DNA of 51,896 nucleotides, from IMG/VR virus record IMGVR_UViG_3300035494_000021, positions 1 to 51,896 of that record; one strand, given 5' to 3'. This stretch comes from a virus. Shown here one piece after another: positions 1 through 51,896 of the stretch; position 1 is the stretch's first letter, and every line of letters starts with the position of its first letter. The notes under the pieces were generated by a model, which was not told where the DNA came from, did no database searches, and saw only the letters and a program-made list of their open reading frames with translations. The position numbers and the translations under genes are program-made.

Positions 1-127
1 GTGAGCCCTAAGCCGTATATTTGTTCAAAGCGAAGCAACTATACGAGGGCCGACGTATCTGGGAACAATGTTGTGATTATAATCCTATAGTAGTTATCAT
101 AACCATCTATAAAGGCTACTCATAAGA
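1..127. repeat. Exact 127-bp copy of the window end (51770-51896): closure overlap of a circular or terminally redundant assembly
   Basis: Both ends read base by base. Positions 1-127 and 51770-51896 are identical, so the unique length is 51769 bp. Confidence 0.95.
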
Positions 128-3125: not shown

Positions 3126-3497
3126 TTAGTAGCCCCACAGTCTCTGCATTGGTCTTTCTGGATCTGCATCTAGGTGAATGATACAGCATCCAGCCACATT
3201 GGATTTCTTGATGCCAATGCCGTAGAAACCCATCTGCATTGCTCGCTGAACCACTTTCCAGCTTTGTTCCGTAGTTACGCGGAAATCAATCGCCGCGCGC
3301 GTGTGAGCACCAGGCTTTGCCTTGGCCGCTTCGATAGAGTGCTGAGGACTACGGTAACCACTTGTTACATAGAATGGAAAACCCATTTCGGTGCGTAGCG
3401 CCTGTACTGCATTCATAAAAGGGATGAATGCTGGGTGATTATTCCACTCGCCGGTTTCCTGACAACGTAGGTCTTTCTCAGTAAAATTTGTCCACAT
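3126..3497 (-). CDS. Peptidase M15-family peptidoglycan peptidase (endolysin candidate)
   Basis: SGYRSPQHS ... GAHTRAAIDF ... CIIHLD matches the H-x-D / H zinc-ligand layout of M15 (VanY/DUF882-like) peptidases. AAGGA RBS before the ATG at 3497. Confidence 0.7.
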   Translation of the reverse strand: MWTNFTEKDLRCQETGEWNNHPAFIPFMNAVQALRTEMGFPFYVTSGYRSPQHSIEAAKAKPGAHTRAAIDFRVTTEQSWKVVQRAMQMGFYGIGIKKSNVAGCCIIHLDADPERPMQRLWGY

Positions 3498-3508
3498 ATT
3501 AATTTTCC

Positions 3509-4081
3509 TTACATGGTGAAGAACCAGTGACCGCCCTGAATATAGAGCGGAGACAATAAGTTTTGCCCATCTACGGACACACACTGTCGCCCTGTGTGGC
3601 GCTCACAGCGCAGCCATTCCGGATACACGCGTTGCCCAGAGGCGTCCAGAGTCAGCCCCTGTGGTGCGACAAAATGGGTGGCAGTAGAGAGGGGATGGCG
3701 AGAGCCGTCTCTGTATGAGAGGACGAGAGAGACGATCTCTGATAGCGCTCGTAAATCATCAGCCGCCTCTGGCGTAGGGATGTCAAAATTTTTAACAGTG
3801 CCTAGAGTCCACGAGAACTGTGCTCTCTGCCAAACGACCTCACAGGCTGATGAAGGGAAGCGCTTGTCTAAAACGCGATTGTATGTGACGTCTATGACGC
3901 CTCTAATACCCATATGCCCTTCACCTCGCGCTTCCCAGTAGGCGTTCTGGATATAGCACTTAGCGTTGTCATCAAGTTTGGCATTAAGCTTCACCAGATT
4001 TGTCTCACCAAGTGCCCAAGTTGGGTAAATTAGCAGCAAAATTATTGCCACTATCATCAAATAGGGTAAGTATTTTTGCAT
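3509..4081 (-). CDS. SleB-like cell-wall hydrolase with N-terminal transmembrane or signal-anchor segment
   Basis: NAYWEARGEGHMGIRGVIDVTYNRV matches the Hydrolase_2 (SleB) signature. Hydrophobic N-terminus LPYLMIVAIILLLIYPTWALG. AGGAG RBS before the ATG at 4081. Confidence 0.7.
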   Translation of the reverse strand: MQKYLPYLMIVAIILLLIYPTWALGETNLVKLNAKLDDNAKCYIQNAYWEARGEGHMGIRGVIDVTYNRVLDKRFPSSACEVVWQRAQFSWTLGTVKNFDIPTPEAADDLRALSEIVSLVLSYRDGSRHPLSTATHFVAPQGLTLDASGQRVYPEWLRCERHTGRQCVSVDGQNLLSPLYIQGGHWFFTM

Positions 4082-5978: not shown

Positions 5979-6797
5979 TTACGAAATTCGACGCCAGATA
6001 GCGCCACGTAAGTGTGCACCTGTTACATCGATTGTTGGACTCGCCACACCTGCGCTTGCAATAGTAATACTACCAGTCAGGGTGTGAGTGTGTGCTCCAT
6101 TTGATGCGGCTGTACCCGACACAGTGTGGGTATGATCACCATTTGAGCCAGTTGTTCCTGAGATAGTGTGTGAATGGTCGGCTACAGAGTCGATAGTTAC
6201 ATCGTGCGTGTGCGCACCACCACTCGCTGCTGTTCCAGACACGGTGTGTGTATGCGCACCTGAAGCTGCTGTTGACGCAGAGTAACCCAAAGCAGAACCT
6301 CCCGGAGGTGCCCATGTTCTAGCTGCCCCTAGGTTGGTAACAAACGTCCCTGACGGTGGTGTGTGGGTGTGCGAGCCATTTGACGCTGCTGTACCACTAA
6401 CTGTGTGAGTATGGGCACCGTTACTTGCAGCTGTACCTGTGTGGGAGTGTGCACCTGCACTACTTGAAGTTCCAGAGAACGAGTGCGTATGTGCGCCACC
6501 TGACGCTGCTGTGCCAGATACTGTATGCGTATGCGCACCATTAGATGCCACTGCCAGTGTATTGGTTAGCGCGTGGGTATGCTCCGGTAACGGTACTGAT
6601 GGAGCATTACTACCTGCATTTGTACCATCGCCTGCAGCAGAGTCTAGAACAAATCGACCTGTGCCGATTCGCTCCCAGACACCAAGCAGGAAGTTGTTTG
6701 GGTCTACCGATGCTTTTGCCGCATGATAAATAGAATCTACTGGCCACATATTTTCAATATAGGCGACCAATGCATCTAGGGAATAACCTTTTGCCAT
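5979..6797 (-). CDS. Tail fibre / tail-collar-type protein with 11 His-x-His repeats
   Basis: The N-terminal WPVDSIY...NNFLLGVWERIGTGRFVL resembles the phage tail-collar motif. Eleven (A/S/D)H(T/S)H motifs follow, spaced about 13 aa apart (GAHTHTVSGTAAS units). AGGAGG RBS. Confidence 0.75.
   Translation of the reverse strand: MAKGYSLDALVAYIENMWPVDSIYHAAKASVDPNNFLLGVWERIGTGRFVLDSAAGDGTNAGSNAPSVPLPEHTHALTNTLAVASNGAHTHTVSGTAASGGAHTHSFSGTSSSAGAHSHTGTAASNGAHTHTVSGTAASNGSHTHTPPSGTFVTNLGAARTWAPPGGSALGYSASTAASGAHTHTVSGTAASGGAHTHDVTIDSVADHSHTISGTTGSNGDHTHTVSGTAASNGAHTHTLTGSITIASAGVASPTIDVTGAHLRGAIWRRIS
6060..6545 (-). repeat. Imperfect ~39-bp tandem repeats encoding the HxH units
   Basis: Repeated gtgtg(t/a)gtgtgcgc(a/c)cc-type blocks are visible on the plus strand. 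The spurious alternate-frame ORFs 6329-6541 and 6439-6726 arise from this periodicity. Confidence 0.7.
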
Positions 6798-6805
6798 TCA
6801 ACCTC

Positions 6806-8233
6806 CTACAATGTTGATACTTGGTTAGGTGTTAGGGCAGTCGCCCATGTAGCGATTTCACGAATGTCAAATGCGCCTGATGGGCCACCTGCTTGACCGA
6901 TGTAGAATTTATCCCATGCATCTGAAGGAGCAAAGGCCATAAATGCACGTTCGGTCTCTACGCCATCTCGATACGCAACAACTTCGTTGCCATCGATGGT
7001 GAATGCGAAACTAGAGATTTCCTCGTTCGCACCAACTGGGCCAAGATCAAATAGATACTGGGCGCCAAGTGGGTCATTAAGTACTAGCTGCGCGTGACCA
7101 TCGGCAATCCAGATTTTATCATCTCGAAGGCTATTATCCCACCAAATCATCATCCCGTCGGAGGCACCTGCAGTCCACGCGATTTCAAAGAACATCGTTA
7201 CATTTACGAAACCTTGTAGATTCAAATACGCATCGATAGTCAGCTGCTCATTATAATACGCACCATTGAGGCGGAGACCTGTCACATGATGGCGTGGCTC
7301 ATTTGGCGGCGCTGTTTGAGTATTACCAGACTTGTCAATATAGCCACGGTTTCCTGGGCCAGTGAATTCACTCATACCAAAGCCAATTGGAATATGAATA
7401 GATGATAGTGGAATCATCTTGAAGTCAGGTACAGGGACTGCGAAGTGGACTTCATCAGTCTCTCGAACAGCCAAGTACTCTTCTTCATTTAGAAGTAGAT
7501 GTTCTTGACCATCCCCTGTATCGTAGAAGCCTCGTCCATCTGATTCACGAATACCCAGACGCTTGGTGTCGCGTCGTAGGCCTGTCCAGCTCGCAGATGA
7601 GTGAATCGCATGGGATCCTGCTGACGCTGAGTTGATCAACGTCTCTTCTGCATCAAACCCTACTTGGCCAGTAAATCGACCACCAAGTGAAGCTGATACA
7701 CCACCAGCTTGCGCAGCAGTTACGCCGTGTGGGTTGTTGGTGTTATTAGCGTGGGTATCGATTGCGGACTGGAGGTTATTCACCAACAGATAAATCTGCG
7801 CCGACGTCAGCGTACCCGCCTGTGAAGCAGTTACACGGTGTGGGTTAGCAGTATCATCTGCGTGTTCTGAGAATCGAAGATCAGCGTCTTCAAGGTCTTG
7901 TGTTGTAACCTGAATTGCTGACAATCCCCATTGGGTGCGGTTGTTCATTGGGCTTGCAGATGTGGATGGGTTCGCTACAAGCGCAACATAAATTCGACCA
8001 TCCGCATTGTCCCATGCAAGCGCACCGAGACTGTATGGGATATCCGATCCCCACTCCATGACACCACGTTCCGCAAGCGCGTTCAAACATAAGTCAGAGC
8101 GGTATTGCAGATAGTTTAGCACTTCATAGGTTGGGATTTCATCAATCCAGCCTTGTTGGTACTTTGCTACTTCTGGTTCGCGTCGGGCACCAGCTGATGC
8201 CCAGACACGTCCACCAATAAGAGGTCTTAACAT
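6806..8233 (-). CDS. Tail fibre protein with C-terminal LamG/concanavalin-like domain
   Basis: Contains the NPHRVTASQAG and NPHGVTAAQAG fibre repeats. The C-terminal FDIREIATWATALTPNQVSTL resembles the Laminin_G_3 terminal motif. Confidence 0.7.
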   Translation of the reverse strand: MLRPLIGGRVWASAGARREPEVAKYQQGWIDEIPTYEVLNYLQYRSDLCLNALAERGVMEWGSDIPYSLGALAWDNADGRIYVALVANPSTSASPMNNRTQWGLSAIQVTTQDLEDADLRFSEHADDTANPHRVTASQAGTLTSAQIYLLVNNLQSAIDTHANNTNNPHGVTAAQAGGVSASLGGRFTGQVGFDAEETLINSASAGSHAIHSSASWTGLRRDTKRLGIRESDGRGFYDTGDGQEHLLLNEEEYLAVRETDEVHFAVPVPDFKMIPLSSIHIPIGFGMSEFTGPGNRGYIDKSGNTQTAPPNEPRHHVTGLRLNGAYYNEQLTIDAYLNLQGFVNVTMFFEIAWTAGASDGMMIWWDNSLRDDKIWIADGHAQLVLNDPLGAQYLFDLGPVGANEEISSFAFTIDGNEVVAYRDGVETERAFMAFAPSDAWDKFYIGQAGGPSGAFDIREIATWATALTPNQVSTL

Positions 8234-8235
8234 AG

Positions 8236-9486
8236 TTAGATACCTAATCCTGCTAGTTGACGTGACGTAAGGACTTTATTCCAAATCTTCAAGTCACGTA
8301 CTCGTGTTGCTGATGGGGGAAGATAATCCAGAAGATTACTCTCCACGGTTGTTCGGTTGATATACCATGGTACTCCGTCCACATAAGCAAATACAGTACC
8401 GACCGCAGCCATCACGTTGGTTGTTGAAAGCACCTGTGTTACCGCAGCATCAAGGATAAGCCCTTGCGCATCAAACGCAGGTTCATTGATTGCTGCAACT
8501 ACCGCGACACTTGATTTGTTGGTGTAGCTGATTGTATCATCAGAGGTATATTCAAAGTCTGCAAAGCCATTTCCTTGCGCTCGAGAGCTTACAACAGCAG
8601 ATAAGTTCTGATGAAGTGGTAGGTGAATGTCTGTTGGTGCTGATTTGAATTTCTGATTGTGCTTTCTGTGTAGCTTAATCGTGTTTCCATCATGTACGAT
8701 TTCAGACACGACTCCATCGACAGACAGCTCCGCGATAGTACTGATTCGCAATACTCGACCAGCTTGGATACCAATGTAGAATCCATTTGTATCTCGCCAT
8801 ACACGACCTTCAACTCCAAACCCCACTACACCGCCATCAAGTTGGACTTGTTGTTGGAATGTACCACCAGACTTTGGAATCAAATCGGCCTGAGCTGGAG
8901 TCACATTGTGTGGGTTGAGTTTGCCGTCTACGTGGTCTGTCAAGTTACCAGTCAGAGTAGCGAATTCGTCTTCGATGGTTGCTTGTGATAGCCCAGGAAC
9001 AACGAACTTCGACCAATCAGTTTCATGAGGATTTGACTTGTCATTGATGTGTGCATCAATCAATGCTACACGCTCTGCAATCTCTTGCAGGATATCGTCT
9101 TCTTCCGCAACAAGTCGGTTGTTTAGAGACCAGTACGTACCATCATCTGTGGATGGCTGCACATTCAGGCTTGGCTGTTCTGCGATATACGCATTACCAT
9201 CAGCTTCATCAATTACAACAGCTTGTGCTGCGTAGGTGATTTTCGATTCCCATAGGAATGGCTGATAACACCATTGCTTTAAATACGTATCCAGATAATT
9301 GTAGAAGAAGTTTACCCATTGGTGTGGCTGCTTTACAACGTCTTGGCCAGGTACTTCCCAACCATTATCCCAAACAAATGGGAACGCAGGATGCCCTGTA
9401 TCTAGCTCAGGGTCTGCAATATCCTCTGGCGCCCTTGGGATTTCTGCCCATGTATAGAGAAACGTCGGGCGTACATAAATTGCCAT
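8236..9486 (-). CDS. Tail fibre protein, paralogous architecture to 6806-8233
   Basis: ATG at 9486 follows AGGAGG. Contains NPHETDW and NPHNVTPAQAD repeats. C-terminal RVRDLKIWNKVLTSRQLAGL is LamG-like. Confidence 0.7.
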   Translation of the reverse strand: MAIYVRPTFLYTWAEIPRAPEDIADPELDTGHPAFPFVWDNGWEVPGQDVVKQPHQWVNFFYNYLDTYLKQWCYQPFLWESKITYAAQAVVIDEADGNAYIAEQPSLNVQPSTDDGTYWSLNNRLVAEEDDILQEIAERVALIDAHINDKSNPHETDWSKFVVPGLSQATIEDEFATLTGNLTDHVDGKLNPHNVTPAQADLIPKSGGTFQQQVQLDGGVVGFGVEGRVWRDTNGFYIGIQAGRVLRISTIAELSVDGVVSEIVHDGNTIKLHRKHNQKFKSAPTDIHLPLHQNLSAVVSSRAQGNGFADFEYTSDDTISYTNKSSVAVVAAINEPAFDAQGLILDAAVTQVLSTTNVMAAVGTVFAYVDGVPWYINRTTVESNLLDYLPPSATRVRDLKIWNKVLTSRQLAGLGI

Positions 9487-19893: not shown

Positions 19894-21342
19894 TTATTCG
19901 TTGAATTGGCCAGAGATGGTGATGCTGTGCAGAGCGCCTGCACCAACCAGTTTGAAGGACATGCCCGCATAGTGGCGGTTGCCTTTATCCGCTTGTGATA
20001 CCTGAGATACAGGTACGTAGCTAATTGAATAGCCCAGTGGCAAATACTCACCTTCCGCTGTAGTACCTGGGGCACCCAGACCGTTGGTGATTGCCTGTCG
20101 TAGCGCACCTTCCAACGCTTGGTAGATCATTGATACACCAGTGTCGCTGTAAGGAACTTTAGTCGTAGTTGTGTACAGGCGGTTAAACACGTCAGTCTCG
20201 ATTCGGTTTTGCAACCAGTCGATACCGTGGATAGTATCGAACCAAGTACCATCAGCCATACGAGAATCAGAGTAAACATTGTTACCGCCGATCTCCACAA
20301 CCGCGTTACCGTTCTTCGCTTCAAGGTTCTGCTTCTGAGTCAGGGTTAGTGTCTCAGTGCTGATACCTGGAAGTGTCTTCAGGAACAACGTGATGGTAGT
20401 GTTAACGCCTTCGAAGTTAACGATGAATGCGCGACCTGCAACTGCTGCCGATGGATACTCGTCCGCATGCTCCTCAGAGGAGTAGTTAGATAGAGTACGG
20501 CTGTAGTTACCTGCTTTCAGTGCAGTCAGGATATCACCTGTTGCAGTTGTCAACGATGCTGAGTCGTTGGTTGTGTTAAAGAACACACGTTGCGAACCTT
20601 GGGCGAAATCAGCAACGCCGATAATGACGCTAAGGTTATCACGCCATTGACGATCCAGCACAATGCCGTAATACGTTGGGTTGATGTTGGTGATTACTGC
20701 CAGAGCATCAGCCGGAGTTTCTGCTACCTGTGCTAGCGTCTGAGTTGCACCTGCTGGTTCAGTCAAGCCTAGCTCAAGAGCCAAGCCACCGATATCAGCA
20801 GCAGCGAAAGATACTTCAGAACCAGCACCAACAGTACCAGAGGTAACTACAAAGACACCACCAACCACATCAATAGATGCTGTTGACGCACCAAGACCTT
20901 GAAGGACTTGTTCTACTTCTAGCGCTACTTCATCTAGGTCAGCGGCACCAGACAGGTCAATACCTGCAAGCTGATATGCTGTACCATCAATAGTGATAGT
21001 GAAGCCACCAGCAGTGATTGCTTGAAGGTCTACAAGTGCACCAGCTGGTCCACCAGTCAGACTAGCAGCTGTTTCTGTTGCAGAGGCACGACCAACCATA
21101 AAGTTAGTAGCGCGAGGAGTGAAGTATGGAACCGCAGCTTTATATACTTCGGACGATACATCCCAGTCTTCCAGAACAGCATCTAGGTTCGGATAAGTAC
21201 GAACACGCTCTTCCAGAGTAAAGGTTTCATCTGTTGGCTCGGCATCAGTTACAAACAGCAACTTACCAAAACCACGGAGCGGTGTTGGTGTTGGTGAAAT
21301 GGTAATACCGACAGCAACGATATTAGATAATGGGATACTCAT
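19894..21342 (-). CDS. Contractile tail sheath protein
   Basis: 482-aa ORF directly upstream of the tube gene. The N-terminus (SIPLSNIVAVGITISPTP..RGFGKLLFVTD) is as recalled for DUF3383-type sheaths. Confidence 0.7.
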   Translation of the reverse strand: MSIPLSNIVAVGITISPTPTPLRGFGKLLFVTDAEPTDETFTLEERVRTYPNLDAVLEDWDVSSEVYKAAVPYFTPRATNFMVGRASATETAASLTGGPAGALVDLQAITAGGFTITIDGTAYQLAGIDLSGAADLDEVALEVEQVLQGLGASTASIDVVGGVFVVTSGTVGAGSEVSFAAADIGGLALELGLTEPAGATQTLAQVAETPADALAVITNINPTYYGIVLDRQWRDNLSVIIGVADFAQGSQRVFFNTTNDSASLTTATGDILTALKAGNYSRTLSNYSSEEHADEYPSAAVAGRAFIVNFEGVNTTITLFLKTLPGISTETLTLTQKQNLEAKNGNAVVEIGGNNVYSDSRMADGTWFDTIHGIDWLQNRIETDVFNRLYTTTTKVPYSDTGVSMIYQALEGALRQAITNGLGAPGTTAEGEYLPLGYSISYVPVSQVSQADKGNRHYAGMSFKLVGAGALHSITISGQFNE

Positions 21343-23365: not shown

Positions 23366-23390
23366 AAAAAGGGAGAGCCGCAGCCCTCCC
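23366..23390 (-). terminator. Rho-independent terminator after the major capsid gene
   Basis: On the minus strand, GGGAGGGC-TGCG-GCTCTCCC (8-bp stem with one G-U, tetraloop) is followed by TTTTT. Confidence 0.75.
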
Positions 23391-23412
23391 TAGTGGGTGT
23401 TACTTACGTAAC

Positions 23413-32858: not shown

Positions 32859-32881
32859 CTAGTGGGCGAGGGACGAGCCCT
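32859..32881 (-). promoter_or_regulatory. Promoter-like motif copy a (AGGGCTC-N12-CTAG)
   Basis: Minus strand reads AGGGCTCGTCCCTCGCCCACTAG, followed by AAGGTGTCAGTTATG. It fills the 36-bp gap between ligase and the next gene. Confidence 0.5.
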
Positions 32882-44987: not shown

Positions 44988-45236
44988 TTACACTAGGTGT
45001 TTGTTTGGTACTTTGATTGTAATTCCACGAATCACAACCGCAGATGTTTTAAAGCCACACTTGTCAACGCGTGCCAAGCAGCCACGACCAACATTGATCG
45101 CACCCACTGGGAGCATGCCTGCGTTTACAAGTTTGCTATGAAGGGTTTGTGTCTCCAACATTACGTTGACGACACGGCCTTCAGTTGGGATAGACGCGCC
45201 AAAGCGGCGCGCCAGTGCTAAAAATAGTTTCTTCAT
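44988..45236 (-). CDS. Small hypothetical protein
   Basis: 82-aa ORF. Confidence 0.55.
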   Translation of the reverse strand: MKKLFLALARRFGASIPTEGRVVNVMLETQTLHSKLVNAGMLPVGAINVGRGCLARVDKCGFKTSAVVIRGITIKVPNKHLV

Positions 45237-45247
45237 CAGAGACTCTC

Positions 45248-45742
45248 TTAGAATGGGGTGTAGTTAGGGTGACGCGGATCAGTCTTCGGAATTGGTTTTC
45301 CATGCTCATCCAGTACAAGGACTTCAGCTTGTGCCTGAGGCATTACTTGAGCCATTGAGGTCGGGGCTTGAGACTGCGCATCTCCTTGCGGATAAGCTTG
45401 TTGAACAGTTGCTCCACCTGCTTGTCCGTTAACTTGTCCACCATTCGAGCGGCTTTGAAAGGAGCGCTCACGCTCTTCATGCTTCGCAGCTTGCTCTGGA
45501 GTTGATGGAGTAATTGAGTTCGAAAGGAACTGCTCACCAGTGCCACGTGCATATTGAATCCACGTTGCAACTTCGTGCCATACGCCGTTAAGCTTCACTG
45601 CACCAAAGTAGTGCGGAGCGCGGTCATTGCGTCGGTTACGTGCGGTCAGTAGGTTGAACTGAGCGACAGGTTGTTGGAACTGTTGACCACCTTGTGCAGG
45701 GTTTTGTTGCATATCTGGGTGGTTAAGTGCTGGAGTTGTCAT
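45248..45742 (-). CDS. Gln-rich hypothetical protein ending ...NYTPF
   Basis: 164-aa ORF. AAGGAA RBS. It is the first gene downstream of motif copy b. Confidence 0.6.
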   Translation of the reverse strand: MTTPALNHPDMQQNPAQGGQQFQQPVAQFNLLTARNRRNDRAPHYFGAVKLNGVWHEVATWIQYARGTGEQFLSNSITPSTPEQAAKHEERERSFQSRSNGGQVNGQAGGATVQQAYPQGDAQSQAPTSMAQVMPQAQAEVLVLDEHGKPIPKTDPRHPNYTPF

Positions 45743-45815
45743 GATATTTTCCTTCTCTTGACTTTGTCTTCTTTAAAATGACAGAACATTTGCGTGACGG
45801 GATTGTCACAACCAG

Positions 45816-45842
45816 TTGATAAATGAACCATTCATCTATCAA
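45816..45842. promoter_or_regulatory. 27-bp near-perfect palindrome abutting motif copy b (operator or 5' RNA hairpin)
   Basis: TTGATAAATGAA-cca-TTCATCTATCAA: 12-nt arms with one mismatch. It begins 3 nt downstream of the CTAG of copy b. Confidence 0.5.
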
Positions 45843-45845
45843 TAT

Positions 45846-45870
45846 CTAGTGGGCAAGCGTAGCGAGCCCT
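45846..45870 (-). promoter_or_regulatory. Promoter-like motif copy b (AGGGCTC-N14-CTAG)
   Basis: Minus strand reads AGGGCTCGCTACGCTTGCCCACTAG followed by ATATTGATAG. It overlaps the stop of the 47-aa ORF. Confidence 0.55.
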
Positions 45871-46013
45871 TATTGCGGTAGAACTGATGCGATTACGATA
45901 ACAACGAACACGATCAAGATACCTTTCCAGATAGTTAGAAAGATACCGTCGCCTTCGTCTTTGTAATAAGTATTACCATTCGAATCACGCCAGCGGTCAG
46001 GGTTATTTGACAT
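45870..46013 (-). CDS. Small membrane protein (47 aa, below the ORF-track cutoff)
   Basis: Hand translation gives MSNNPDRWRDSNGNTYYKDEGDGIFLTIWKGILIVFVVIVIASVLPQ, with a C-terminal TM helix and an AGGAA RBS. An alternative ATG lies 6 nt upstream. Confidence 0.5.
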   Translation of the reverse strand: MSNNPDRWRDSNGNTYYKDEGDGIFLTIWKGILIVFVVIVIASVLPQ

Positions 46014-46025
46014 TTGCATTTCCTT

Positions 46026-46074
46026 CTAGTAAATACAATCAAGAGCCCTCCGCAATGGAAGTGAGAGGACTCTT
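46026..46074 (-). promoter_or_regulatory. Hairpin plus degenerate promoter-like motif (GAGGGCTCTTGATTGTATTTACTAG)
   Basis: 10-bp stem, 46041-46050 with 46065-46074 (a G-U pair only on the minus strand). The 3' arm carries AGGGCTC, and a CTAG lies 13 nt further on at 46026-46029. Confidence 0.35.
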
Positions 46075-46082
46075 TGTTTTAT

Positions 46083-46697
46083 TTACTTCACACTGATGAC
46101 ACGAACCACTTGTGGAATGTCTTCAATAGTTAGCGTAGTGATTTGCGCAAAGACTTCGTAGCTTCCCGGTGGTAGGCCAGCTAGGTCGTCTTGTGAATGC
46201 GCAAAACGTTGAATGCCTTTCGATGCATCACGCAGGTAGCATGGGAACATCATAGCCATTTGTAAATCTGCAATTGGCAGTTCTGGGTCAGGCATTTGTA
46301 GTTTTGGAGCAACCGCGATTAGTGTATCAACCATCTTCTTCATCGATGCATGGTTTGGTACACCACCTGATTGGCGGTATGATACGTTTACAGCTTGGAT
46401 ATCCATCGCATACGCTTCATACTTCTTCAGGTAGCCTTTGTGGTTGAATGACGGTGTTGTATTTCGTGCGTACGAATCCACAGAGATGTAGATTGAGTTG
46501 CGACAGAATTCCGCCGAGTATTCAGAACCAGATAGGCCATCATTCCAGCGAATTGAGACCTTACCATTTTCTTTGGTGCCACGGACTTCGGTTACTTTAC
46601 CAAGGCGGCCACGTTGGTTTTGGTTGTTGCCAACATGCATAACATGGTCGCCAACACGAGCCATGCGTTGTGGGTGCATTGGAAGATACATAGGCAT
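46083..46697 (-). CDS. Hypothetical protein
   Basis: 204-aa ORF. TAATG overlap with the upstream gene. Confidence 0.6.
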   Translation of the reverse strand: MPMYLPMHPQRMARVGDHVMHVGNNQNQRGRLGKVTEVRGTKENGKVSIRWNDGLSGSEYSAEFCRNSIYISVDSYARNTTPSFNHKGYLKKYEAYAMDIQAVNVSYRQSGGVPNHASMKKMVDTLIAVAPKLQMPDPELPIADLQMAMMFPCYLRDASKGIQRFAHSQDDLAGLPPGSYEVFAQITTLTIEDIPQVVRVISVK

Positions 46698-46879
46698 TAT
46701 GCTAGTACCTCTTTAACATTTTCGCGCAAGAATACTTTCTGTGCACGAGTGTATTTGACGTGCTTGAACACCGCATCCAGTTTACGGGTCGAGCTGAAGA
46801 TCACTTTGCCGTTACGAACTAGTTCATACGTAGTGACCAGAAGTTTTACGCGTTTGCGAGGAGTACGTGGAGCTGACAT
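46697..46879 (-). CDS. Small basic hypothetical protein
   Basis: 60-aa ORF with a GGAGGTG RBS. Confidence 0.65.
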   Translation of the reverse strand: MSAPRTPRKRVKLLVTTYELVRNGKVIFSSTRKLDAVFKHVKYTRAQKVFLRENVKEVLA

Positions 46880-47016
46880 TATTTCACCTCCACACGGTTG
46901 TTGCGTTTGATTGCACGGCCAAGCAACAGGCCAAGTTTTAGAGCACCGCGTTCTGCAGCCATGATTTGATTGGTACGCTTTTGCACGTTACGTGCGAACT
47001 TAGATGATTTACGCAT
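46879..47016 (-). CDS. Small highly basic protein (45 aa, below the ORF-track cutoff)
   Basis: Hand translation gives MRKSSKFARNVQKRTNQIMAAERGALKLGLLLGRAIKRNNRVEVK. GAGGA RBS. TAATG overlap with the next gene. Confidence 0.45.
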   Translation of the reverse strand: MRKSSKFARNVQKRTNQIMAAERGALKLGLLLGRAIKRNNRVEVK

Positions 47017-47087
47017 AATGATTATCCTCTAGCTATGCGTTGTACTTACGGGTTATGTAAAGCTACTCAATGAATAGATTTACATAA

Positions 47088-47111
47088 GCGCCCTACCATA
47101 GTGTAAGGCGC
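47088..47111 (-). terminator. Hairpin (weak terminator candidate)
   Basis: On the minus strand, GCGCCTTAC-ACTATG-GTAGGGCGC (9-bp stem with one G-U) is followed by TTATGTAAAT, a poor U tract. Confidence 0.3.
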
Positions 47112-47194
47112 AGGTTGTGGTCACCACCCGAAATTACGGCATCCGCTTCCAAGTGAGTTTGCGGATGACGAATCGAGGATGACGAGGGTTTAAA

Positions 47195-47398
47195 TTACAC
47201 GAAAGCGTGGTGAGTCTCTCGCGTGTAAAGCGGTGGAGCTTTGACAGCCTTAGCGTTATTACGAGCAATAAGACCTGCCATGCCACGGGATTTCTTAGGG
47301 TCTTTACGATCAATGTCAGTTGAAACCACGCCAACATAATCAGATGTACTAGATAAGCCACGTGAACGACTCCCTGTTGTTGAGTTTTCTGCATACAT
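47195..47398 (-). CDS. Small hypothetical protein (frame choice uncertain)
   Basis: 67-aa hydrophilic ORF. It overlaps an alternative 86-aa ORF (47134-47394) in another frame. Confidence 0.4.
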   Translation of the reverse strand: MYAENSTTGSRSRGLSSTSDYVGVVSTDIDRKDPKKSRGMAGLIARNNAKAVKAPPLYTRETHHAFV

Positions 47399-47402
47399 AG
47401 TT

Positions 47403-47726
47403 TTAGTATCCTAAAGCTAATGAATCACAAGCACCGCAATACATATCGTGTATCACAGTGCCACAAGATTTACATGTTGGTTCGCTAGGAACCTTCTCTG
47501 ATTCAAGTTGAGTATAGTCGTGAGTCAATTCGTAATCAGGCATATCTAATTCCCACGGGTGGGTTGGCTGATATGAAGCCAAGTAGGTATCTGTAACAGC
47601 ACCTACAAATTCCTTAGTTGGAATTTCGTAATGGGCAATGCTGTTAGAGATACTCACCTCTACAAGAACAAAGTCCTCGTATTTGTGAGCGTAGATACGT
47701 CTAACAGCAGCAAGGTTATTAAACAT
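47403..47726 (-). CDS. Hypothetical protein with C-terminal CxxC...CxxC zinc ribbon
   Basis: ATG at 47726 follows AGGAG. C-terminus CKSCGTVIHDMYCGAC. Confidence 0.6.
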   Translation of the reverse strand: MFNNLAAVRRIYAHKYEDFVLVEVSISNSIAHYEIPTKEFVGAVTDTYLASYQPTHPWELDMPDYELTHDYTQLESEKVPSEPTCKSCGTVIHDMYCGACDSLALGY

Positions 47727-47743
47727 AAATACGCTCCTGTTAC

Positions 47744-47998
47744 TTACCAAGCCATGCCAGTCAGGAATAGCTCACGGTCGTCAGCATTCAGCATGTACAT
47801 ACAGTTTTGAATGCTTTCGCCGTTCAACCACTGCGAATACTGGTCAACAGATACAGGCAGTTGTTTACGAGTTTCTTCACCCAATGGGCTACGGAAGGTA
47901 AATAGAATGCCACTGCGTCTAACAATGGCATGAATTACGGCTTTGTGGGTACCAAGTTCAGTACCCACAGCTACACCGCATGTAAATTGGTCTGACAT
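47744..47998 (-). CDS. Small hypothetical protein
   Basis: ATG at 47998 follows GGAGGA. 84 aa. Confidence 0.6.
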   Translation of the reverse strand: MSDQFTCGVAVGTELGTHKAVIHAIVRRSGILFTFRSPLGEETRKQLPVSVDQYSQWLNGESIQNCMYMLNADDRELFLTGMAW

Positions 47999-48020
47999 GT
48001 TAATGTCCTCCAATCAGTGC

Positions 48021-49043
48021 TCAGATTACACGGATGTCTAGATCACTCAACTCAATAGGTTGTAACATCACCTTCTTACCAGTACGGTTTAGGATGTCTT
48101 TATCCATGATTTGAGCACGTTTCTTGTTGTGATCAGCCAGAGCCATCAGAACGTCACCATTGGCAACAGCTTCTAGGATGGTGGCTTGATCACTTTTGTC
48201 TGTCGCCACATCTTTGATGACTAGCACTACAGACTCTTTTGCGTCGAGACCTTTATCGGCATCAACAAATTGGATATCCACGATACGACGTGACATAGAT
48301 TTCTCTCCAGAATTGGTTTCAATGAATGCATCAACAGGGATTTCTGTGATGCTTGGTTTCACCTCTACTTGCAGATCGACATCCAGCTCGTCTTGATTGA
48401 GTTGAACTTTAGGTTCTGCAAGCATGTGCGGGTAACGCACTTCCCATTGCTTCACAACGCCGTGAATAATGGATTTGATTCGGTCTTGAGATACTCGCCC
48501 ATCTGACAGATGCAAGCATACGGCACTTGTCAAACTGTCGCGTAGCTCTTGAATAGCACCCTCTTTCGAAGTGCAGATTGGATGGCTGCGGGTACGCTTT
48601 CTTGCTGCGCGAGCTCGGAACTGTTCGCACGTTTCACCGCGTCGGCGGCTAAGACCTATCAGACTAGCTAATTGGTCTAGCTCCGCACCAGTTGCACCCA
48701 TCGGTGTAATCACATGAGAATGATCACTTGGTAGCTGTGCAGGACTGGCAGGCTTAATTGGCGCATGCGAGTGTGGTGTATTATCGCTAAGGTTGCGGTA
48801 TTGCTTCAGCAACTCTCCCTTTGCAATCTGTCTTGCAGCAATGCCAGAACACAAAGTTTTGGAGTACCACTCAATCAGTCCTTCAGGAGAATCAAATTTA
48901 TACTCTCCTTGGCAGTGTGTGCTGGTGTATACAGTTTGATACCCCCCCAACCAAGGGCTGAAAGGATTCTCGATTTGTTCAGCATAGCCACCACACACCT
49001 CTTTCAGCCATTTCAGTTGGTCTTGGTTAGGTGTTGTTGACAT
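48021..49043 (-). CDS. Hypothetical protein
   Basis: ATG at 49043 follows GGAGG. 340 aa. No motif recognised. Confidence 0.6.
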   Translation of the reverse strand: MSTTPNQDQLKWLKEVCGGYAEQIENPFSPWLGGYQTVYTSTHCQGEYKFDSPEGLIEWYSKTLCSGIAARQIAKGELLKQYRNLSDNTPHSHAPIKPASPAQLPSDHSHVITPMGATGAELDQLASLIGLSRRRGETCEQFRARAARKRTRSHPICTSKEGAIQELRDSLTSAVCLHLSDGRVSQDRIKSIIHGVVKQWEVRYPHMLAEPKVQLNQDELDVDLQVEVKPSITEIPVDAFIETNSGEKSMSRRIVDIQFVDADKGLDAKESVVLVIKDVATDKSDQATILEAVANGDVLMALADHNKKRAQIMDKDILNRTGKKVMLQPIELSDLDIRVI

Positions 49044-49044
49044 A

Positions 49045-49713
49045 TTAGCCTCCAAATCGTGCCAAGATACGGTCGCCGATGTCATCTTCCATCAGGCCTT
49101 TGGTGAAGAAATCTTGCACCAGATTGTGACGCATCAGTGCTTTAGCTTTACGCTTTTCAGCACCGTGTTCATCTTCACGAGTCTTCTCGTAGTGGAATGG
49201 CTTACGCCAATCATACAGAGAATGAATGCCGCCGAATTCATCGAACCAGAATTTGTTGATATCTGCGTCGAATGAATTAACTACATCAGTAATCGTTTGA
49301 TGCTCTTCTGTGTAGAAGATCAGATCAAATTCTTGCTTGTATAGTTTCAGCTTCATCACACAAACCAGACGGCCATCACCGTAGTCTGGGTGCTGTTCAA
49401 AGATTTCTGGTGGATTGCCAGCAGCACCTAGGCCATACTCTTCATCAAAGTAGTTGCGCAAGTCCCACGCTGCACTAAGCGCTTCGCCACGATCGTTGAA
49501 GCCAAAGAGGTTGATGTCGACATCACCTTTGCCTTTTACGTCCAAACCTTGTGATGCAAAGTGCAGATCACGTACTAGGCCACCAGCAATAGCAGCATCA
49601 GCATGAAGATCCATAGCTTTCAAACACAACTTGATTTCAGACAATAGCTCTTTACCAGCAAGAGCTGCTGTGGTTAGTGTGCCAGTTAGTACTACAATAT
49701 TCAGTTTACTCAC
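49045..49713 (-). CDS. Pol-beta-superfamily nucleotidyltransferase, CCA-adding/poly(A) polymerase head-domain-like
   Basis: AGGLVRDLHF-x10-GKGDVDINLFG resembles the GG.VRD ... DxD signature of class II tRNA nucleotidyltransferases. GTG start follows GGAG. Only 222 aa. Confidence 0.5.
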   Translation of the reverse strand: MSKLNIVVLTGTLTTAALAGKELLSEIKLCLKAMDLHADAAIAGGLVRDLHFASQGLDVKGKGDVDINLFGFNDRGEALSAAWDLRNYFDEEYGLGAAGNPPEIFEQHPDYGDGRLVCVMKLKLYKQEFDLIFYTEEHQTITDVVNSFDADINKFWFDEFGGIHSLYDWRKPFHYEKTREDEHGAEKRKAKALMRHNLVQDFFTKGLMEDDIGDRILARFGG

Positions 49714-49746
49714 GGTATTTCTCCATGTTGTTTGTTAATCACAATC

Positions 49747-49770
49747 AGGAGCCCTCTTTCGAAGACTCCT
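49747..49770 (-). promoter_or_regulatory. Bulged hairpin carrying GAGGGCTCCTGATTGTGATT
   Basis: AGGAG (49747-49751) pairs with CTCCT (49766-49770), and TCTT with AAGA around a TCG loop. The 3' flank resembles the element at 46026-46050. Confidence 0.3.
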
Positions 49771-49781
49771 TGTTGTGACCG

Positions 49782-50099
49782 CTATTTCTCTGGGAGTTGA
49801 GATAGATACGAATCAAGATATTTCTTAATTGTATCTCCATGGCATCGTTTAGGAGCACACCAGCATTGCAAGTTAACATCACCTGTTCTTGCCAGCGTGT
49901 ATATACGACGCAGTTCCTTCATAAAGACTGGATTCTTATTCGCAACTTGTTGATTGAAATACTCTTCATATTTCTCACAAACCTCATCACGTTGAGATTC
50001 AGTCTCCATTTTGAATGGATTGCCCAGAACACTTGTACGATCAATTTTCACATTGATTGCATCTGATTTGTTTCGCCAGACTCTTCCTACGGTAATCAT
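49782..50099 (-). CDS. DUF4326-like protein
   Basis: VLGNPF ... LQCWCAPKRCHGD matches the DUF4326 pattern as I recall it. ATG at 50099. Confidence 0.55.
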   Translation of the reverse strand: MITVGRVWRNKSDAINVKIDRTSVLGNPFKMETESQRDEVCEKYEEYFNQQVANKNPVFMKELRRIYTLARTGDVNLQCWCAPKRCHGDTIKKYLDSYLSQLPEK

Positions 50100-50344
50100 A
50101 CGCCCACCAACAAGCAAAGACCATCAGCGATAGATTCAGCAGCACAAGTTACAAAGATAAGTGCCGCCGCAATTAGCATGTGTTTTACAGTCATGATACC
50201 CATACCAGTCTCAAGGCCACTACAGCCAATGATACGACCGCCACTGCTTGGCAGACGTCTTTTCGAACACCCGCGATTAGCAGTAGCATGATTGCCCCAG
50301 TTAGACTTAGAGCCATTATTCCTAGGGCTGCTGTCATAAAGCAT
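50096..50344 (-). CDS. Small hypothetical protein with C-terminal hydrophobic segment (start uncertain)
   Basis: 82-aa ORF. Internal starts at MGIM or MTVKH would give a ~35-aa membrane peptide (HMLIAAALIFVTCAAES). Confidence 0.35.
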   Translation of the reverse strand: MLYDSSPRNNGSKSNWGNHATANRGCSKRRLPSSGGRIIGCSGLETGMGIMTVKHMLIAAALIFVTCAAESIADGLCLLVGV

Positions 50345-50660
50345 TTCTTACAGATTTGATAATCTGATCAGCATATCCTTTATCACACGCACCCGAATGG
50401 ACAGCATCGCCCAGTACAGGAATTAGTTTCTCGCCACCACGAACACGTTCTAGGAGACGATCAGCAAACGCCATAGTCATGGTGTCTGAGTCAACCATAG
50501 CGATACAAACAGACTCAATAGCAGTGATGTTAGTTAGGTTCGACATATCTCGGTTCTCCTGAATGATTTCTCGTAAGCGAGCTAATGAAGATTTAGGCCA
50601 TGAGTTAAGCATGTTGTTCTCCATCAGAATGAATAAAAAGTACTCTACTATCAACGGCAT
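50334..50660 (-). CDS. Hypothetical protein with one VDSDT-type repeat (paralogous to 2364-2705)
   Basis: ATG at 50660 lies 8 nt after GGAGG. An alternative ATG is at 50612. Contains CIAMVDSDTMTMAFADRLL. It is the first gene after the long control region. Confidence 0.6.
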   Translation of the reverse strand: MPLIVEYFLFILMENNMLNSWPKSSLARLREIIQENRDMSNLTNITAIESVCIAMVDSDTMTMAFADRLLERVRGGEKLIPVLGDAVHSGACDKGYADQIIKSVRNAL

Positions 50661-50811
50661 CGGAGTCACCTCCAGTAGAGCGAAAGGGAGTAAGGGAGTT
50701 TAGGCGTTGTGTCATCTAGGTGCCTTGACCACTATCACATTCTCTTAGCGTTAGGAATGAGTACGGAACAATTTACAGAGTTATCGGTTGTTCAGTCGAT
50801 ATTACCAAAAT

Positions 50812-50835
50812 CTAGTGGGCGAGCGTAGCGAGCCT
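50812..50835 (-). promoter_or_regulatory. Promoter-like motif copy c (AAGGCTC-N14-CTAG)
   Basis: Minus strand reads AAGGCTCGCTACGCTCGCCCACTAG followed by ATTTTGGTAA. It lies ~150 nt upstream of the first early gene. Confidence 0.55.
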
Positions 50836-50899
50836 TTGGCTTTTAGCTTTCCCTCTAGGGCTAGGTTCTGTTGGAAATCACGAGTGACATAAGTCATTC

Positions 50900-50960
50900 A
50901 TAGATTACTCATAATTATAATGTTAACTAATATTATAATCATAATTATGAATAATAGACA
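50900..50960. other. AT-rich block with repeated TCATAATTAT
   Basis: Reads ctcataattataatgttaactaatattataatcataattatgaataataga. TCATAATTAT occurs twice, 30 nt apart. Confidence 0.6.
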
Positions 50961-51014
50961 TCTTGTTGTAGACAGTGTCTGTGACACATATTCATACAAC
51001 ACTAGTTACAATTG

Positions 51015-51436
51015 GGTCGATACGACCATATTATAGAGCGAAGCTCATTATGACAGTTACGGACATCTTCATACCTATTATGGCCTTTATGTTGACCGTT
51101 ACGGTCTTATGTAGGTGAACGACGTATCATACCTATTGTCTGTGCCTGACGTTCTGTACCTTGCGGTGTGAAGTCGTAGAGTCACTCCACAGTCACTTAC
51201 AAACTCATACCACAAAGGCATAAGCAGTTAAGGACATACGACCGAAGCGGTCATAGTCACTCACACACCCAGAGCGGATTCAGCTCAACAAGGACAGACA
51301 TCGGGTACACCATAATCATACTACATAGTCATACAATAATAGGGTCGTTCCGACCATAATACTGAGGCGATGCAGGTTATGTTTCAGCAGATGCTGATGA
51401 TGTAGTAGAACCTGAGGTCTATGGCTCGTCTCGAGC
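51015..51436. repeat. Array of five 13-nt hairpins (5-bp GC-rich stem, 3-nt loop)
   Basis: The five are GGTCG-ATA-CGACC (51015-51027), GACCG-TTA-CGGTC (51094-51106), GACCG-AAG-CGGTC (51240-51252), GGTCG-TTC-CGACC (51343-51355) and GCTCG-TCT-CGAGC (51424-51436). The first and fourth share ~55 nt of flanks (TCATACAA ... CGACCATAWTAYWGAG.CGAWGC). Confidence 0.75.
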
Positions 51437-51592
51437 TTATTAGTCATACTCATAATCAGCCAGCTTGATATATGGGCGACTTTCAAAGTCCGAGACGTCT
51501 GGCAACCATTGCTGGCGACCTTAGGTTCCTTTGGTGCGTACTAGCGTGAGTTTCCAAAGCGGAGAACATTACGGCATATACACTACCAATAT

Positions 51593-51615
51593 CTAGCGGG
51601 CGAGGTACGAGCCCT
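51593..51615 (-). promoter_or_regulatory. Promoter-like motif copy d (AGGGCTC-N12-CTAG)
   Basis: Minus strand reads AGGGCTCGTACCTCGCCCGCTAG followed by ATATTGGTAG. Confidence 0.55.
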
Positions 51616-51720
51616 TTCCCTTATGGTTACTTTGTTACTTATGATATAATCAGCATTTGGAGTAAATACAACCGGAGCATCTTATACCTATGTTGCTTGA
51701 TGGGTTCTCCACTCCTGCCC

Positions 51721-51743
51721 CTAGTGGGCGACAACGGAGCCCT
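51721..51743 (-). promoter_or_regulatory. Promoter-like motif copy e (AGGGCTC-N12-CTAG)
   Basis: Minus strand reads AGGGCTCCGTTGTCGCCCACTAG followed by GGGCAGGAG. Confidence 0.5.
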
Positions 51744-51753
51744 AGTGCTGTTC

Positions 51754-51778
51754 CTAGCGGGCGAACGTAGTGAGCCCT
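51754..51778 (-). promoter_or_regulatory. Promoter-like motif copy f (AGGGCTC-N14-CTAG)
   Basis: Minus strand reads AGGGCTCACTACGTTCGCCCGCTAG followed by GAACAGC. It is 10 nt from copy e, and its upstream half is also present at 1-9. Confidence 0.5.
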
Positions 51779-51896
51779 AAGCCGTATATTTGTTCAAAGC
51801 GAAGCAACTATACGAGGGCCGACGTATCTGGGAACAATGTTGTGATTATAATCCTATAGTAGTTATCATAACCATCTATAAAGGCTACTCATAAGA
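51770..51896. repeat. Second copy of the 127-bp terminal overlap
   Basis: Identical to 1-127. It starts inside a copy of the promoter-like motif at 51754-51778. Confidence 0.95.

Follow-up and report, generated by a model that had tools for sequence, protein, structure and literature searches.

Candidate hairpin-type promoters for the T7-like RNA polymerase of a circularly assembled chasevirus genome

Phages of the family Chaseviridae encode a T7-like RNA polymerase whose promoters, according to the international virus taxonomy committee (ICTV, 2022), 'have not yet been identified'. Which signals does such a polymerase read? We addressed this question in IMG/VR virus record IMGVR_UViG_3300035494_000021 (positions 1 to 51,896; "the window" hereafter means this whole stretch of 51,896 nt), in which an element of the form AGGGCTC-N7-9-GCCCRCTAG is found six times between open reading frames (ORFs), always on the gene (minus) strand. 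An initial annotation of this DNA had taken the copies for promoters of the phage RNA polymerase, with a 3′ half resembling T3/T7 promoters. Promoter function is still the best explanation, whereas a rigid duplex form of the T7/T3 type is contradicted by the free spacer and the co-varying halves of the element. On balance, we consider it probable that the six elements are promoters for the phage T7-like single-subunit RNA polymerase and that a small hairpin, not a rigid duplex, is what the enzyme recognises in their upstream part.

A recurrent intergenic element and the phage polymerase

The window is a circularly assembled chasevirus genome. Its bases 1-127 are identical to bases 51770-51896 (100% identity over 127 nt) and therefore represent a circular-assembly overlap, which leaves a unique genome of 51,769 bp. 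Because of the circular assembly, the physical ends and the terminal repeat of ~3 kb that is typical of the family are unreadable from the window sequence. All the long ORFs are on the minus strand. The closest relative, and the sole close one in GenBank, is Vibrio phage vB_VpaM_VPs20 (Chaseviridae, Nefertitivirinae; VPs20 below), with 84% DNA identity and 86% protein identity in the polymerase gene. We found no transcriptome or promoter study of VPs20 or of the Nefertitivirinae in the literature.

The presumed reader of the elements is a single-subunit RNA polymerase of 719 amino acids (aa) encoded at 157-2316 (minus). The protein matched the Pfam family RNA_pol with 29.1 bits (cut-off 22) and, when searched alone against solved structures, gave no match. 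A profile of 15 relatives matched T7 RNA polymerase (E = 4e-13) with DxRGRxY, the Asp of motif A and the HD of motif C aligned; the same family profile matched N4 RNAPII weakly and the N4 virion polymerase not at all. These similarities point to a very divergent T7-like single-subunit RNA polymerase.

The element is real and far beyond chance. Its exact pattern, written on the plus strand as CTAG-N10-16-GAGCCCT, had six matches in a single orientation against 0.15 expected from shuffles, and none of 100 shuffles reached six. The word CCCACTAG was the top over-represented intergenic 8-mer of the genome, with five copies on the gene strand and none on the other. Word counts were limited to intergenic DNA, unmasked whole-genome counts being dominated by codon bias, and the intergenic 8-mer count revealed no other recurrent motif able to serve as a promoter. 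In a covariance model, the six copies scored 31-42 bits and the next match in the window, on either strand, 9 bits; the model was built from 20 copies in five genomes including the six of the window, so that their own match is by construction. The copies are strand-specific, intergenic and placed at the heads of gene blocks, and the initial annotation had located all six correctly.

Two copies stand in tandem just after the polymerase gene. Copy f (51754-51778, minus; AGGGCTCACTACGTTCGCCCGCTAG; 37.1 bits) starts ~150 nt after the polymerase stop codon and straddles the circular junction, its last 9 nt being also window positions 1-9. Copy e (51721-51743, minus; AGGGCTCCGTTGTCGCCCACTAG; 31.3 bits) starts 35 nt after the start of f. 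Copy d (51593-51615, minus; AGGGCTCGTACCTCGCCCGCTAG; 41.2 bits) lies ~310 nt after the stop codon, again through the circular junction, is followed by a conserved downstream box ATATTGGTAG (51583-51592) and is preceded by a conserved CATAAGTAACC...ATAAGGG block that is also found ahead of the syntenic element in a related metagenomic contig (L131). No ORF is found within ~900 nt downstream of f, e and d. Copy c (50812-50836, minus; AAGGCTCGCTACGCTCGCCCACTAG; 41.7 bits; 50802-50836 with its downstream box ATTTTGGTAA) is located ~1,090 nt after the stop codon, ahead of the first small genes and 143 nt upstream of the first ORF past the non-coding region (start 50669). These four copies cluster within a 1.2-kb non-coding region that also contains an AT-rich block and other repeats. 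Their position just downstream of the polymerase gene, as originally described, holds only by wrapping around the circular junction, as the 127-nt overlap implies. The AGGGCTC consensus given at that time fits five copies, and copy c has AAGGCTC instead.

The other two copies are distant from this cluster. Copy b (45846-45870, minus; AGGGCTCGCTACGCTTGCCCACTAG; 41.9 bits; 45836-45870 with its downstream box ATATTGATAG) is 104 nt upstream of a 164-aa ORF (start 45742), the first of a block with primase/helicase and DNA polymerase genes. The downstream extension AGATWTTGRTA previously noticed in b, c and d is real. Copy a (32859-32881, minus; AGGGCTCGTCCCTCGCCCACTAG; 38.8 bits) lies between the DNA ligase gene and a block of deoxynucleoside monophosphate (dNMP) kinase, recombinase, terminase and structural genes that leads into the late genes. 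It is followed directly by AAGGTG, which resembles a Shine-Dalgarno (SD) sequence, and by an ATG at 32846-32844, the distance between the element and the SD-ATG being 13 nt. A seventh, degenerate copy had been suggested at 46026-46049. This sequence fits the loose pattern but was not recovered by the model, and it belongs to a terminator-like hairpin (46031-46073), of which it forms the 3′ arm and tail. The structural region contains no full copy, as had been reported; it has only a lone CCCACTAG at 23390-23397.

Conservation, pairing and the probable folding strand

VPs20, whose polymerase is 86% identical, has retained copies at all six homologous places and carries one more at 5097. The orthologues include those of f (2305-2329), e (2340-2363), c (~3544), b (8225-8249) and a (20986-21008, ending in CTAA). 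The window and VPs20 are 81% identical overall in the aligned region past the polymerase gene, and neither AGGGCTC nor GCCCRCTAG varies there. The spacer bases are largely different and in copy e differ also in number, the VPs20 spacer being 1 nt longer; spacers of 7, 8 and 9 nt occur. A free spacer between invariant halves is the evolution expected of a hairpin tip and not of a contiguous T7-type promoter, which would be a block of ~20-23 bp in fixed register.

On the gene strand, the element consists of GGGC, TC, 1-2 nt, a 3-nt loop, 1-2 nt, TC, GCCC, the 4-nt spacer R-C-T-A and G. In all six copies GGGC/GCCC and one or two inner pairs surround the 3-nt loop, interrupted by a 2x2 internal loop. 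We counted pairing in the 20 copies from five genomes, for a structure in which a TC/TC internal loop separates four outer pairs from one inner pair. The count gave 96% of cells paired and compensatory changes in two of the five pairs. The third outer pair was G-C in 16 copies, A-T in three and T-A in one, with no mismatch, and the inner pair was G-C in 17, A-T in two and C-G in one. The covariation score was 0.253 compared with 0.082 in column shuffles (none of 500 reached the observed score), and it fell to 0.04-0.12 when the partner was slid by 1-3 columns. Between the orthologous f and e copies of the window and VPs20, double substitutions preserve the inner pair (A-T versus G-C and C-G versus A-T). 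This co-variation is supportive of a hairpin, not proof of it. The initial annotation had added the caveat that the element might be recognised as a structure, and that version is now the better-supported one, since the halves vary in spacing between orthologues and co-vary, together with the inner pair, as base pairs. The element thus appears better described as a hairpin-type than as a T7-type promoter.

Related elements are present at the same positions in every relative examined. The relatives were taken from GenBank phages and a protein collection. Those compared for the window-type element were VPs20 and the metagenomic L131, L132 and L136; those with clean hairpins were Aeromonas phages pAh6-C and ZPAH14, Shewanella phage Spp001 and the metagenomic contigs L126-L130, L133, L134 and L137. 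The polymerases of L131, L132 and L136 are 45-51% identical to that of the window over the aligned core. L131 has the elements AGGGCTCGCTTCGCTCGCCCGCTTGG and GGGACTCGTTCCTCGTCCGCTTGG, with the 5-base tail GCTT-G; L132 has four tandem copies of GG(G/A)CTCGTTCCTCG(C/T)CC followed by TGTT-G, TGCT-G or TTTT-G; and L136 has GACTCGCAAGCTCGTC. In IMG/VR, a search with the back-translated polymerase gave no match, and a scan for GGGCTC-N5-11-GCCCRCTAG gave 116 contigs, with a single match in each of the 80 listed and no multi-copy relative among those; such single matches are background noise.

In relatives with ~50%-identical polymerases, the syntenic place is occupied by tandem arrays of 5-bp hairpins with 3-4-nt loops. 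The order there is an intrinsic terminator, a single-copy box TAG(A/T)TGCT(T/A)CGC and the tandem array, which has a period of ~30 nt and in which A(A/C)AAG and often CACTAG come after each clean 5-bp hairpin. Further copies are found in intergenic gaps of the early region over the next ~10 kb, many of them 15-30 nt before an SD-ATG. A hairpin scan with identical criteria on both strands gave 55 on the gene strand versus 8 on the other. The syntenic stems are GGCTC/GAGCC, GGCAC/GTGCC, GGCCA/TGGCC, GGCCC/GGGCC, GGCGC/GCGCC and GGTTC/GAACC. They were compared by eye, as loops of 3 and 4 nt shift the register of the rows in a MAFFT alignment of the whole non-coding regions. The comparison suggests that the stem sequence is free in these relatives provided that the pairing is kept.

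Single instances of the relatives' type were also seen in the two closest genomes. The window has one at 46978-46995 (minus; GCACG-TAA-CGTGC-AAAAG), intergenic and ~20 nt ahead of an ATG, which as a single instance could be of chance origin. VPs20 has one at 2547 (GTTCC-TACG-GGAAC-ACAAG), which is deleted in the window.

Two forms of polymerase occur in this family, a long one of ~840-870 aa that carries an extra ~140 aa at the N-terminus and a short one of ~710-760 aa, to which that of the window belongs. The short polymerases include every genome with the interrupted, window-type hairpin. In a rough polymerase tree, genomes with window-type or variant hairpins fall in one short-polymerase clade and those with clean hairpins in other clades; this grouping equally tracks the overall relatedness of the phages and therefore does not discriminate between explanations.

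Which strand would fold? On the template (window plus) strand the element reads GGGC-GA-(G, GC or AC)-GNA-(C, GC or GT)-GA-GCCC, as in copy f (CTAGC-GGGC-GA-AC-GTA-GT-GA-GCCC-T) or, with a different loop, copy e (GGGC-GA-C-AAC-G-GA-GCCC). Read in this way, it would have an outer stem of four G-C pairs, then two G·A mismatches in tandem, one or two inner pairs and, at the tip of five of the six copies, a GNA triloop, the conserved TC/TC internal loop of the gene strand being tandem GA/GA on the template. The template loops are GTA (f, d, c and b), GGA (a) and AAC (e), and the pair closing the triloop is C-G in f, c and b and G-C in d and a. The heptamer GCGTAGC is present on the template strand of copies b and c, and GCGAAGC in copy c of VPs20 and in L131. 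Among 41 relatives' copies found without any loop constraint, the gene-strand loop had a 5′ T in all 41 and a 3′ C in 37, closed by C-G in 39. On the template strand 35 of the 41 are C-[GNA/GNNA]-G, most commonly CGAAG, and the stem GGCGC gives GCGAAGC. A hairpin-only scan of the gene strand likewise found 51 T..C loops versus 10 G..A loops. Stem mismatches in the family occur solely at the outermost pair, as gene-strand A·C in 13 copies, equivalent to a template G·T wobble, and as T·C in two, and no inner pair of any family copy has a gene-strand G·T. The asymmetries in loop shape, mismatches and internal loop point to the template strand as the folding strand.

DNA mini-hairpins of the GCGNAGC and GCGNNAGC kinds, which contain a sheared G·A pair, are extraordinarily stable and are far weaker as RNA; their stability is unexplained by conventional thermodynamic models (PMC13037366). 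They are met repeatedly in the start regions of phage replication and transcription, and the N4 mini-vRNAP binds the mini-hairpin GCGGAGC in its promoter (PMC13037366). Stability that lies outside the standard energy models may explain why nearest-neighbour folding of the six copies gave energies no better than those of shuffles.

The bases after the hairpin are also constrained. All six copies of the window have R-C-T-A and then G after the hairpin; in VPs20, this G is replaced by A in copies a and b. In the hairpin-only scan, for which the tail was not used, the fifth base after the hairpin was G in 46 of 51 cases, positions 3-4 were A in 44-45, position 10 was T in 37 and position 11 a purine in 43. 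Mixed forms exist as well: Spp001 and L127 have a clean hairpin followed by (G)CTAG-G (GCGCC-GCTAG-G in Spp001), and L136 has an interrupted hairpin followed by GAAAAG. The common denominator of all these elements would be a hairpin, four bases and G. In phage N4, the hairpin of the template strand is used, with the foot of its stem at -5, four bases serving as a ruler and a template C at +1; a G at the 5′ end and an A at the 3′ end of the loop and a closing G:C pair are required (PMC4496689). By analogy, transcription probably starts at the G of CTAG. The mRNA from copy a would then begin with GAAGGUGUCAGUUAUG, with its Shine-Dalgarno sequence at +2 to +7.

Proposed promoter function and alternative explanations

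In the mechanism that we propose, the inverted repeat would be extruded or opened, the polymerase would bind the template-strand hairpin, and the RNA start would be fixed four bases past the hairpin foot, at the G of CTAG, in the geometry of the N4 virion RNA polymerase. Additional bases would be placed at the hairpin tip and the conserved halves would stay adjacent, so that the 23-, 24- and 25-nt versions of the element could all be tolerated. The host enzyme would transcribe the polymerase gene itself. Just downstream of that gene, copies f, e and d would fire; c would drive the small early genes, b the replication genes, and a, with partial terminators behind it, the dNMP kinase, recombinase, terminase and virion gene block.

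To our knowledge, the hairpin type of promoter design has been known so far only from the unrelated phage N4. Like the N4 early promoters, the elements of the window have a small G+C-rich inverted repeat with a 3-nt loop upstream of the presumed start, in which non-conserved stem bases are free if paired and change only with the pairing kept (PMC4496689), in five of the six copies a template loop 5′-G-N-A-3′ of the GCGNAGC kind (PMC13037366), and a 4-nt spacer between what would be the hairpin foot at -5 and a template C at the presumed +1, from which the RNA would start with G (PMC4496689). They differ in the conserved TC/TC (template GA/GA) internal loop and the 4-bp outer stem, in a loop that is not always GNA with a closing G-C pair in two of the six copies, and in the spacer, which is RCTA in the window and four identical bases in N4. 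The N4 enzyme, itself T7-like, is a virion protein of 3,500 aa that needs gyrase and the host single-stranded DNA-binding protein (SSB), whereas the enzyme of the window has 719 aa. The analogy with N4 is one of mechanism, not of descent.

With the class II/III promoters of T7, T3 and SP6, the elements share a cognate single-subunit polymerase encoded by the same genome, recurring co-oriented intergenic copies upstream of genes at the heads of gene blocks (six of six), tandem copies right after the polymerase gene and apparently a CACTA core close to the presumed start. Those promoters are contiguous 23-bp duplexes in fixed register, whereas the elements of the window have 7-9 free nt in the middle and flanks that change together as base pairs. 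The window has also far fewer late copies, the late region being served by a single one.

A nearer comparison is offered by the sister subfamily Cleopatravirinae, for which promoters are predictions only. The GenBank record of phiEcoM-GJ1 lists three 'putative phage promoters', all nnnCATTAGTTG[GC]ATGTGA[AG]; this type of motif has about nine copies in phage Mangalitsa, one of them upstream of the polymerase gene, and eight consensus promoters were proposed for PP101 (PMC6989608). As in the window, a recurrent intergenic gene-strand motif accompanies an orthologous polymerase within the same family, with its first copies just after the polymerase gene, and CAYTAG with a following TTGG is common to both (CATTAGTTGGATGTGA in the sister subfamily, CACTAGATATTGGTAG in copies b, c and d). 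The Cleopatravirinae motif differs in being a rigid block of ~17 nt with neither variable spacing nor a consistent upstream hairpin, and in having one copy ahead of the polymerase gene, where the window has none. Its consensus CATTAGTTGSATGTGA has no copy in the window, only CAYTAG and TTGG being in common, with three extra bases between them. In the annotated members of the sister subfamily (Mangalitsa; 4HA13; ICTV profile), the polymerase gene is the first gene and lies inside the terminal repeat of ~3 kb. We also observed that the first 'phage promoter' after the polymerase gene, at 2863-2893 in Mangalitsa and ~2880-2916 in GJ1, is preceded by GTC(T/C)C-GATAT-TCGAC. The template strand of Mangalitsa there is GTC-GA-ATATC-GA-GAC, with GG for the second GA in GJ1, a stem-plus-tandem-GA layout like that of the window that is absent from the other copies.

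Several observations weigh against hairpin promoters in the window. Promoter function is suggested by anatomy and conservation alone, and the argument from stability draws on the literature about non-canonical motifs, which the energy model leaves uncovered: as DNA, on either strand, the six copies fold no better than shuffles (z -1.4 to +0.8). The co-variation of the window-type element amounts to seven cells in two pairs, among related sequences. The loop of copy e is AAC and not GNA, d and a have G-C instead of C-G as the pair closing the triloop, and from the 23-nt to the 25-nt form the loop shifts by 1 nt relative to CTAG. The family profile matched the T7 enzyme and not the virion polymerase of N4. 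A link tested between motif type and a residue of the specificity loop failed: a conserved Arg of that region (LQRxNF; K, A or E in window-type genomes) seemed to track the AMAAG tail and was rejected because AAAAG tails occur together with Q or L at this residue in L134 and L137. As to placement, copies f, e and d lack a nearby ORF, and the hairpin elements of the relatives are confined to the first ~12 kb past the polymerase gene, with none ahead of late genes. In the window a single copy (a) stands ahead of ~30 kb of late genes and the strong post-capsid terminator (23366-23391) lies beyond it, so that either the late genes would be reached by read-through over very long distances or a further signal would have escaped detection.

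The alternative that survives best is an ordinary T7-type duplex promoter without any hairpin. In that case, the polymerase would read the contiguous 3′ half (TCGCCCRCTAG and the next bases) and AGGGCTC would be a second contact or a site for an accessory factor. The non-significant folding energies and the T7-like profile of the polymerase are compatible with this, as is the rigid, hairpin-free candidate CATTAGTTGSATGTGA of the sister subfamily with its shared CAYTAG. The CACTA core also appears to resemble the -7 to -3 part of the T7, T3 and SP6 consensus. However, the spacing between the halves is 7, 8 or 9 nt and varies even between orthologues, two-sided changes keep GGGC/GCCC and the inner pair complementary, and the freedom of the relatives' stems is unexpected for contacts with a duplex. 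The lone CCCACTAG at 23390-23397 moreover lies directly ahead of a terminator, an unlikely spot for a working promoter. We consider a duplex promoter unlikely.

Slightly less likely still, in our judgement, are two explanations in which the element is not a promoter. The first is that the template-strand hairpins are replication signals, serving as priming, single-strand initiation or origin elements for the primase-helicase and DNA polymerase. Mini-hairpins of the GCGNAGC type occur frequently where phage replication is initiated (PMC13037366). Four of the copies lie in the 1.2-kb non-coding region together with an AT-rich block and repeats. The primary origin of T7 is a tandem pair of phage promoters beside an AT-rich stretch just after gene 1, and promoter and replication roles might coincide in this manner for f and e. 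Copies a and b are nevertheless far from the cluster and at the heads of gene blocks, a being 13 nt ahead of an SD-ATG; all the copies are co-oriented with transcription; and the relatives' elements precede many individual small genes.

The second, to which we give an equally small chance, is an element acting in the mRNA, that is, a hairpin at which the transcript is processed, that stabilises it or that is the operator for an RNA-binding translational regulator, with the true promoters elsewhere. Compensatory changes would keep such a hairpin too, and several copies are just ahead of ribosome-binding sites. An RNA hairpin is difficult to reconcile with the mismatches, which lack any gene-strand G·U-type inner pair and are restricted to A·C (13) or T·C (2) at the outermost pair. 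TNC loops and TC/TC internal loops are furthermore unremarkable as RNA, whereas their complements GNA and GA/GA are well known as stable motifs of DNA. There would be no ORF for f, e and d to regulate, the intergenic DNA offers no alternative recurrent promoter-like motif, and there was no Rfam family match (a search of 45000-51896 gave nothing relevant).

Terminators, pause sites or sites for a DNA-binding regulator unrelated to initiation are very improbable: the elements are indeed short, G+C-rich and intergenic inverted repeats, with ATTTTGG after copy c, and in pAh6-C (locus position 4032) the same hairpin is followed by TTTTG, but the 4-bp stems without a U tract do not form the G+C-rich stem of at least 5 bp plus T/U run of an intrinsic terminator, none of the six copies was called or overlapped by a gene-strand terminator call, in essential agreement with the earlier remark on the lack of U tracts, the genuine terminator-like hairpins (49737-49770, 46031-46073 and 23366-23391) look different, and stem co-variation speaks against a duplex binder that reads sequence.

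Returning to hairpin recognition by the phage polymerase, a broader proposal would be that the T7-like polymerases of this branch of the Chaseviridae read their promoters as template-strand mini-hairpins (stem, tandem G·A, GNA loop, four bases, +1) and form a second hairpin-reading lineage, independent of N4. We regard this generalization as possible but tentative. If it is true, DNA-hairpin promoters would not be a peculiarity of N4-like phages but a recurring solution among single-subunit polymerases. The reader would be an enzyme of ordinary size made after infection, not an injected giant, and transcription would depend on supercoiling or strand opening. The phages would provide a natural series for change in promoter recognition, from the rigid duplex (Cleopatravirinae) through the clean hairpin (Aeromonas and Shewanella phages) to the interrupted hairpin of the window, the rigid motif of the Cleopatravirinae representing the other end of an evolutionary transition between recognition modes. 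The element and the hairpin family of the relatives supply concrete promoter candidates, with exact positions, for one whole branch of the Chaseviridae. Promoters that are short, orthogonal and dependent on structure, used with small polymerases, have practical appeal as well, both for in vitro transcription and for synthetic circuits.

Other features of the non-coding region and genome

A non-coding stretch of ~1.0-1.7 kb separates the polymerase gene from the next ordinary gene in every relative, sometimes containing a small ORF or an inserted endonuclease gene. In the window, the polymerase gene is followed immediately by a hairpin with a T-rich tail (107-135, minus; AAGGCTAttcttatgagTAGCCTT-TATAG). 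It is kept in relatives as AGCCAYT...AGTGGCT and was not called by the strict terminator scan; it is likely the terminator of the upstream transcript, possibly made by the host polymerase. Between this terminator and copy f is a single-copy box TAGTTGCTTCGC (30-41, also 51799-51810, minus; consensus TAG(A/T)TGCT(T/A)CGC). The box is found once per genome, at the same spot, in VPs20, pAh6-C, Spp001, ZPAH14, L126-L128, L131, L132 and L136, and is separate from the repeated element. The conserved TAGWTGCTWCGC box, which resembles TAGTTG of the Cleopatravirinae, was considered as the real general promoter and rejected, as there is exactly one per genome.

The region between copies d and c (50,900-51,320, minus) contains the AT-rich block (50908-50949), two ATAGGTATGA repeats (51069-78 and 51127-36) and small GGTCG-N4-CGACC hairpins. 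Other repeat families are found at the equivalent place in relatives, namely GTATGAGAC in ZPAH14 and pAh6-C, AGTATGTCATGGGGTTAC many times in L129, L133 and L136, and GACATACAC and GGTGGATAAACTG in L134 and L137. Repeats at this position may be origin iterons or host early promoters. Scans for sigma-70-like promoters gave counts at or below shuffle expectation everywhere and are uninformative on host promoters. At this place VPs20 carries an inserted gene with an AP2 domain (3202-3522), probably a homing endonuclease, which the window lacks.

Two terminator-like hairpins of the early region (49737-49770 and 46031-46073, minus) share the tail TGATTGT(G/A)(A/T)TT, and each closes a run of small early genes. 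In the late region, a strong hairpin with a T5 tract forms a terminator directly after the major capsid gene (23366-23391 within 23366-23397, minus), a placement like that of T-phi in T7. The lone CCCACTAG just ahead of it lacks the upstream half and is probably due to chance, about one such 8-mer being expected per strand.

Upstream of the polymerase gene is a 122-aa ORF, whose sole Pfam match, with an unrelated family, was a weak one that did not reach the family cut-off. It was considered as a split-off N-terminal domain of the polymerase and rejected, since many relatives naturally lack the N-terminal extension of ~140 aa. Elsewhere in the genome, a 272-aa ORF (5979-6797, minus) contains four 71-nt repeats at 6084-6553, spaced alternately by 120 and 159 nt and 69-75% identical to the reference copy. 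From this repeat structure, its product is probably an internally repetitive, tail-fibre-like protein.

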